A DNA stretch of 64,000 nt. It comes from Escherichia coli (GTDB lineage Bacteria > Pseudomonadota > Gammaproteobacteria > Enterobacterales > Enterobacteriaceae). The notes under the pieces are model-generated. The model searched no databases. It saw nothing but the letters and a program-made list of their open reading frames with translations, and was not told where the DNA came from. The stretch lies in the NCBI RefSeq assembly GCF_030384885.1, contig NZ_CP128613.1; one strand, written 5' to 3'. Position numbers and translations under genes: made by a program. This document shows, one piece after another, positions 6,046 through 6,227 of this stretch. Every line of letters begins with the position of its first letter. The first letter of the stretch is position 1.

Positions 6046-6132
6046 ATGGACGATGTTATTCAAATTTTGATAGCGTCTGGCATCGTTATTTCTTTTGGCC
6101 TCGGCGCGATTACTGCGGGGGTCTTTCGTTAA
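6046..6132 (+). CDS. Minor coat protein pVII-like (28 aa)
   Basis: MDDVIQILIASGIVISFGLGAITAGVFR; hydrophobic, resembles recalled M13 pVII; below ORF-track size cutoff. Confidence 0.7.
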   Translation: MDDVIQILIASGIVISFGLGAITAGVFR

Positions 6133-6227
6133 TGTATATCGTTTATTTCTTCGGGGCTTATACCTTTGGTTTTGCCCTTTTCTATGCGGTCGGTTCATTT
6201 AAATCATTTTCTGACCGATTAATGTAA
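6132..6227 (+). CDS. Minor coat protein pIX-like (31 aa)
   Basis: MYIVYFFGAYTFGFALFYAVGSFKSFSDRLM resembles recalled M13 pIX (MSVLVYSFASFVLGWCLRSGITYFTRLMETSS); TAATG overlap with pVII stop. Confidence 0.7.
   Translation: MYIVYFFGAYTFGFALFYAVGSFKSFSDRLM

Follow-up and report, generated by a model that had tools for sequence, protein, structure and literature searches.

Two short overlapping reading frames as probable genes VII and IX of an IKe/I2-2-like filamentous prophage at the Escherichia coli dif site

Between gene V and gene VIII of a filamentous prophage in Escherichia coli (contig NZ_CP128613.1 of assembly GCF_030384885.1; the whole stretch analysed, hereafter the window, comprises 64,000 nucleotides), two very short open reading frames (ORFs) follow each other on the plus strand. 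This locus raises the question whether these ORFs are genuine genes for the minor coat proteins pVII and pIX and, if so, to which kind of filamentous phage they assign the element. Sequence comparison makes it very probable that they represent genes VII and IX, and that the filamentous (Inoviridae) prophage to which they belong is intact, IKe/I2-2-like and arranged in tandem at the E. coli dif site.

A preliminary description of this DNA had placed two overlapping ORFs of 28 and 31 aa between gene V and gene VIII, and its coordinates proved exact to the base. The gene VII ORF extends from the ATG at 6046 to 6132 (TAA at 6130-6132; 28 codons) and encodes MDDVIQILIASGIVISFGLGAITAGVFR, while the gene IX ORF extends from the ATG at 6132 to 6227 (TAA at 6225-6227; 31 codons) and encodes MYIVYFFGAYTFGFALFYAVGSFKSFSDRLM. 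The stop codon of the former and the start codon of the latter share one base in the sequence TAATG at 6130-6134. Two bases separate the gene V stop, at 6043, from the ATG of gene VII, and 19 bases lie between the gene IX stop and the start of gene VIII at 6247. The VII/IX pair occurs in a single copy within the window. Since chance alone produces many ORFs this short (the first 14 kb of the window contain 193 that reach 20 aa or more), the bare existence of the two is uninformative, and both owe their status as genes to homology, synteny and the pattern of substitutions. The features in and around the pair are as follows:

5726..6043, + strand: gene V, single-stranded DNA-binding protein of 105 aa (PF17426 Putative_G5P, E = 3.2e-51; RefSeq 'DNA-binding protein')
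6003..6131, + strand: spurious N-terminal extension of gene IX, a non-gene (ATG lost and stops present in relatives)
6046..6132, + strand: probable gene VII, minor coat protein pVII of 28 aa (PF19978, pVII identity, dN/dS, WP_031602482.1)
6132..6227, + strand: probable gene IX, minor coat protein pIX of 31 aa (pIX identity, PHROG 28333, dN/dS)
6247..6489, + strand: gene VIII, major coat protein precursor of 80 aa (PF19199 Phage_coatGP8, E = 8.2e-19; 59% identity to IKe pVIII)

The 28-aa product matches the Pfam family PF19978 (Inovirus_G7P_2) with 43.4 bits (E = 2.7e-11; gathering cutoff 27). As the same model recognizes M13 pVII (76.4 bits) as well as IKe pVII (63.2 bits), this protein belongs to the curated family that contains the pVII of Ff phages. 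It also matches PHROG 19107 (E = 5e-10). The 31-aa product matches PHROG 28333 ('minor head protein'; E = 7.6e-9). It has no match in Pfam or NCBIfam, and the same holds for the pIX proteins of M13 and IKe, as neither collection contains a pIX model; an NCBIfam scan of six of the phage proteins gave no meaningful match. With its homologs in IKe, I2-2 and PEar1, pVII shares 68-71% identity (68% with IKe), and pIX shares 55-61% over the full length (58% with IKe). At the nucleotide level, a blastn search with positions 5700..6500 against 50,697 phage records returned the annotated VII-IX-VIII regions of IKe, I2-2 and the Erwinia phages PEar1-6 at about 66% identity, and all matches of a six-frame tblastn search of all GenBank phages (E <= 10) were annotated pVII or pIX genes. 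A profile search for pIX among 1.84 billion representative proteins revealed a tight family of three clusters only. A scan for a degenerate motif, run on a single genome of each species, returned twelve stretches; six of them fell by chance within long ORFs of no relation, among others in Bartonella and Pseudomonas, and were rejected.

Synteny and gene structure point in the same direction. The order V-VII-IX-VIII is shared with IKe and I2-2 (genus Lineavirus) and with PEar1-6, as are the sizes of the two products (28-32 and 31-33 aa) and the overlap of the gene IX start with the gene VII stop. The order VII-IX-VIII with its stop/start overlap recurs in IKe, I2-2, PEar1, the relatives retrieved from IMG/VR (see below) and contigs of Rosenbergiella and Izhakiella: pVII, 28-32 aa long, ends in FGLGAITAGV(F/L/I)R, its stop codon shares one or more bases with the ATG of the pIX gene (TAATG or ATGA), and gene VIII comes next. 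In pVII, the C-terminal motif SFGLGAITAGV is invariant among the window prophage, IKe, I2-2 and the PEar phages. There are, however, differences to these phages: the N-terminus of the window pVII is one to four residues shorter, and the overlap amounts to one nucleotide (TAATG) here but to four (ATGA) there. The annotation of homologous genes VII and IX in IKe and I2-2 goes back decades, and both exact protein sequences from the window are already present in NCBI, so the two genes themselves represent no new biology.

The physical build of the products agrees with this assignment. pVII consists of an acidic N-terminus (MDD; charge -2), an uncharged helix of 24 residues and a C-terminal arginine, and has a GRAVY value of 1.47; the terminal residue, R28, is invariant in every pVII aligned, including that of M13. 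Taken together, the length of about 30 residues, the uncharged run of 23-24 residues, the acidic N-terminus of pVII and the basic C-termini of both proteins match the pVII and pIX of M13 and IKe in charge and hydrophobicity. The preliminary reading of the ORFs as pVII- and pIX-like minor coat genes is thus borne out by identity to the IKe, I2-2 and PEar proteins, by synteny and by the substitution pattern.

A resemblance to M13 pVII and pIX in particular had also been claimed. This stands for hydrophobic character and, through PF19978, for family membership of pVII, but the likeness of the sequences themselves is weak. pVII shares 37% identity with M13 pVII in a MAFFT alignment (hhalign probability 77%) and pIX 19-23% with M13 pIX (hhalign probability 7%), and direct BLASTP comparison of the 28- and 31-aa products with M13 pVII and pIX yielded no alignment. 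Alignment with the pVII and pIX of Ff-class phages, which had been proposed as a check, is accordingly strong for IKe, I2-2 and PEar and weak for M13. For the 31-aa protein a bridge is provided by P0031 (MDYVSYFIGAYVLGYCLFSGIAYFKDISSKIV), a member of the pIX profile family that is 44% identical to M13 pIX (pairwise E = 3e-8). Homology to the Ff pIX is therefore supported indirectly, via this one intermediate and synteny, the direct similarity being not significant. A profile match to the PDB entry 8B3P was obtained with M13 in the profile and was discarded as circular; with M13 removed, the PDB search gave nothing at E <= 10. Hence, there is no sequence-based tie to a solved structure beyond the bridges formed by Pfam and P0031.

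Genes VII and IX lie within a complete phage gene set. Region 4662..10495 contains the canonical genes II, V, VII, IX, VIII, III, VI, I and IV, of which those downstream of gene VIII, together with two hairpins, are the following:

6499..6517, + strand: GC-rich hairpin followed by TTTATT, terminator-like (fold -12.1 kcal/mol)
6536..7786, + strand: gene III, attachment protein pIII of 416 aa (Pfam G3P_pilus-bind and Phage_Coat_A; 50% identity to IKe pIII over the full length)
7786..8127, + strand: gene VI, minor coat protein pVI of 113 aa (52% identity to IKe pVI, E = 8e-35; Pfam DUF5455)
8128..9222, + strand: gene I, assembly ATPase of the Zot family (PF05707, E = 4.7e-41)
9230..10495, + strand: gene IV, secretin (Pfam Secretin, Secretin_N and GspD N0; RefSeq product of 421 aa)
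10485..10544, + strand: long hairpin at the gene IV stop, candidate packaging (morphogenetic) signal (folds and position as in IKe/I2-2)

All five virion genes, III, VI, VII, VIII and IX, are present, and the pair does complete the virion gene set, as had been proposed. The five virion proteins and the order of their genes are collinear with IKe, at identities of 68% (pVII), 58% (pIX), 59% (pVIII), 50% (pIII) and 52% (pVI). The N-terminus of pIII matches the IKe-type pilus-binding domain (PF21443), the hairpin at 6499..6517 has the position of a stem-loop annotated in IKe as potential terminator, and gene V is of the I2-2/Putative_G5P type. Nucleotide similarity to IKe/I2-2 (Lineavirus) is below genus level, as megablast aligns 189 bp (3% of the query) in gene IV at 80% identity. 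Further differences to IKe, I2-2 and the PEar phages are the genome size of about 8.6 kb, the cargo genes and two extra ORFs, and the tandem integration at dif instead of a strictly episomal state. The glycine-rich linker of pIII (7136..7255) is composed of 15-nt tandem repeats that encode GGGES about five times and then GGGSS; its length varies among near-identical prophages, so that pIII ranges from 411 to 435 aa in public assemblies.

The preliminary description had further taken the two genes as confirmation of the Ff phage class. This does not hold, as the virion module is IKe/I2-2-like and the prophage lies in tandem at dif. Megablast, blastn and tblastn searches against the 50,697 phage records matched none of the Ff records (M13, f1, fd); the matches were all to IKe, I2-2 and PEar. 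What is shared with Ff phages, for which cryo-EM structures are available (8B3P, 8IXL, 8JWW), are the pVII family PF19978, the position of the genes in the genome, their size and the lack of a signal peptide, as well as the acidic N-terminus, the basic C-terminus and the invariant C-terminal arginine of pVII (PMC10175506). In contrast, the receptor domain of pIII is of the IKe type (PF21443) here, and the low identities of pVII and pIX to their M13 counterparts also set the phage apart. The phage is thus not an Ff phage in the strict sense (M13/f1/fd, genus Inovirus), having no close sequence tie to that group and being integrated rather than strictly episomal.

The integration site brings the element close to a different group of phages. 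The prophage array is bordered on its right by the following site:

11263..11290, + strand: perfect E. coli dif (28/28 bases match)

A hybrid dif-like site at about 2688..2718 forms the junction of two prophage copies. The tandem unit measures 8575 bp, and its upstream copy is truncated by the start of the window, inside gene I. With this offset (1..2700 vs. 8576..11275), the two copies are 100% identical across the 300 nt that were compared. Among 5,426 complete E. coli genomes, 51 contain the element with a query coverage of at least 80%. Most of them match at two or more places, some at up to 16, and in the two E. coli records examined the element adjoins hipBA. YpfPhi and CUS-1 have been described as filamentous phages that integrate at dif (PMC4266046). 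Compared by description, the window prophage resembles CUS-1 (E. coli O18:K1:H7) and YpfPhi (Yersinia pestis) in dif integration, tandem copies and a unit of 8-9 kb, and also in its modules for replication, morphogenesis and secretion, in two ORFs annotated without function beside attR and in a variable segment on the attL side (PMC4266046). Assignment to a CUS-1/YpfPhi-like type fits these features, the likeness being one of published organization. The terms 'pVII', 'pIX' and 'minor coat' do not occur in the YpfPhi review (PMC4266046). For the window, the biological weight of the two genes is small: they confirm a complete virion gene set. The class is corrected from Ff to a dif-integrating prophage of CUS-1/YpfPhi-like type whose virion module is IKe/I2-2-like.

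Selection on the two ORFs was assessed with the loci retrieved from IMG/VR by a gene V search (41 loci), among which those with a window-type structural module have 83-100% DNA identity over positions 6000..6260. For gene VII, compared with relatives at 83-97% DNA identity, the third codon position accounts for between 4 of 4 and 14 of 15 differences, with a dN/dS of 0.01-0.03. For gene IX, dN/dS ranges from 0.06 to 0.29, and one relative (L007) has three synonymous differences and no replacement. This pattern marks the two ORFs as conserved genes that encode proteins and are subject to strong purifying selection. In other IMG/VR loci (L019-L035, L042, L045, L046), a gene V of 86-95% identity is followed by an unrelated ORF of about 85 aa (MDTSGFDIQFDNH...) that replaces the IKe-like genes VII and IX, which indicates that replication and virion modules are mosaic.

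Genuine homologs of genes VII and IX might nevertheless reside in a decaying prophage that is no longer productive, and would then have no current function in the host. The chromosomal location of the element would agree with this, as would a window without sign of activity and a promoter scan that found no enrichment (7 sites vs. 17 expected); the promoter/terminator consensus scan was set aside as evidence, having missed the hairpin after gene VIII. Decay would, however, be difficult to reconcile with nine canonical genes that are all of full length, with the identity of the tandem copies and with dN/dS values of genes VII and IX far below 1. Moreover, 23 E. coli records contain the element at 99% identity or more, and 48 do so at 95% or more. 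A related element in Izhakiella was assembled as a contig of 8.3 kb whose coverage of 336x would suit a replicating form, and the related YpfPhi is reported to produce infectious particles (PMC4266046). We therefore regard a defunct prophage as improbable; with its complete set of virion genes, the window prophage could make particles.

A second alternative concerns the reading frame. The 74-aa ORF at 6003..6227 consists of the gene IX frame and an N-terminal extension of 43 codons, and could itself be the real gene, with the 31-aa ORF as its C-terminal part and the 28-aa ORF as an out-of-frame overlap. In all relatives at 83-89% DNA identity, however, the ATG of the extension is gone and two stop codons interrupt it, whereas the last 31 codons are nearly unchanged. 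The substitutions over 6046..6131 fall on third positions as read in gene VII, and these correspond to first positions in the 74-aa frame. No family matches the extension, which is hydrophilic, and IKe, I2-2 and PEar1 have no counterpart of it. The ATG at 6003 does have an SD-like site (AAGGTG; -9.1 kcal/mol) at good spacing, and the 74-aa product is called 'hypothetical protein' on about 989 contigs, with 525 more for a variant of it. In the face of the broken frames in relatives, the 74-aa ORF is very improbable as the real gene. Given the good SD-like site at 6003, some translation of this frame may take place within the window lineage, for which it may even be a young overprinted gene.

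That the ORFs are chance frames in a non-coding V-VIII spacer, as the abundance of short ORFs in this region might suggest, or that the antisense ATG-initiated ORF of 52 aa at 6040..6198 is the functional one, is hardly credible. Against it stand the matches to Pfam and PHROG families, an identity of 55-71% to genes already annotated and a strong bias of the substitutions towards third codon positions; the antisense ORF has lost its start or gained stops in five of six relatives. Both the 74-aa and the 52-aa antisense ORF were rejected as broken in relatives.

The view that genes VII and IX are easily lost in automated annotation was confirmed. In the two RefSeq records examined, gene VII is named 'tail virion protein G7P-2' (WP_031602482.1) and gene IX is unannotated in both; in public gene calls, the 74-aa ORF mostly takes its place. 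The 28-aa pVII is called on 968 contigs as tail virion protein G7P-2, minor coat protein or phage coat protein, and the 31-aa pIX on 24 contigs as 'phage coat protein'. An ORF threshold of 60 aa would display the 74-aa ORF alone at this position. Gene IX is omitted or replaced by this artefact because no pIX family model exists, and the SD-like site of the ATG at 6003, which lies inside the coding sequence of gene V, probably explains why the 74-aa frame is called. As a result, a spurious 'hypothetical protein' stands on well over a thousand enterobacterial contigs, which a small pIX model together with suppression of the 74-aa call would remedy. Artefacts of the same kind in the ORF track are the longest ORFs for gene III (6392..7786, 464 aa) and gene IV (9137..10495, 452 aa), which overextend these genes beyond their real starts at 6536 and 9230, respectively, an assessment based on the RefSeq calls and on N-termini that resemble signal peptides.

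Because the SD sequence of gene VII is weak (AAAGG, -3.4 kcal/mol) and its ATG follows the gene V stop after two nucleotides, gene VII is probably translated by coupling to gene V, an arrangement that Ivey-Hoyle and Steege are said to have found for gene VII of f1. Gene IX, which starts on the gene VII stop, has a G-rich SD-like site of its own (GCGGGGG, -9.3 kcal/mol).

The function of the products can be outlined by analogy with Ff phages, as the structure of the M13 tip and the role of the C-termini in it have been described (PMC10175506). pVII and pIX are predicted to be single hydrophobic helices that lack a signal peptide and would insert into the inner membrane. The blunt, 'round' tip of the virion would then be built from five copies of each protein, and in it the basic C-termini (...AGVFR in pVII and ...KSFSDRLM in pIX) would face the DNA and the acidic N-terminus of pVII (MDD) would be exposed. 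Together with pI, they would recognize the packaging-signal hairpin and start extrusion at the pI/pIV machinery, and the tip that they form would be the first part of the virion to emerge from the cell.

The DNA partner of pVII and pIX in the window phage is likely to be the hairpin at 10485..10544. It is predicted to be highly stable as RNA (-38.3 kcal/mol, z = -9.7) and also stands out when folded as DNA (z = -8.1). It sits where a 'morphogenetic signal' is annotated in IKe and I2-2, with which it has the apex CGGGTAGGTGCGnnAGCCCTGC in common; the lower stems, in contrast, diverge among the phages while their pairing is kept. A second hairpin at 10875..10919 (-22.6 kcal/mol, z = -3.9) lies between the two ORFs that follow gene IV. 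The C-terminus of pVII, SFGLGAITAGVFR, is identical in the window prophage and in IKe, a phage specific for plasmid-encoded pili. With both this C-terminus and the hairpin apex identical to IKe, the tip proteins and the packaging signal could conceivably form one recognition module that is interchangeable across dif prophages and IKe/I2-2, a speculative notion that we regard as rather unlikely. If it did apply, phages of the IKe/I2-2 type and chromosomal prophages could package or mobilize each other's genomes, and the genomes so mobilized would include variable toxin-antitoxin and defense-like cargo.

Two conserved ORFs lie between gene IV and dif, at 10565..10873 (102 aa) and 10991..11224 (77 aa), with copies at 1990..2298 and 2416..2649. 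The 77-aa ORF carries a CxxC...CxxC pattern, and RefSeq calls the products of both hypothetical proteins. They probably correspond to the ORFs of the YPO2280a/YPO2281 type in YpfPhi and CUS-1. At the other end of the unit, region 2720..4500, between the hybrid dif-like junction and a small ORF on the minus strand (4310..4492), serves as a slot for variable cargo. In the window it holds a 309-aa protein of the STM4504/CBY_0614 family (2786..3715, minus strand), whose RNKEGGH motif resembles the Rx4-6H motif of HEPN proteins, and a 189-aa membrane protein (3799..4368, minus strand). In prophages that are otherwise about 99% identical, the same slot contains a Doc toxin, three small hypothetical proteins, a CAP12-PCTIR TIR protein or a ParE toxin.

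Immediately beyond dif on its right side, an island at 11296..17082 is 95-97% identical to a few E. coli genomes only; in strain UM146, an SDR oxidoreductase is found at this site. The island encodes an NEL-type E3 ubiquitin ligase (12992..14425, minus strand) with 60-nt LRR repeats at 13111..13770 and a 654-aa ankyrin-repeat protein (15118..17082), and its genes look like those of effectors.
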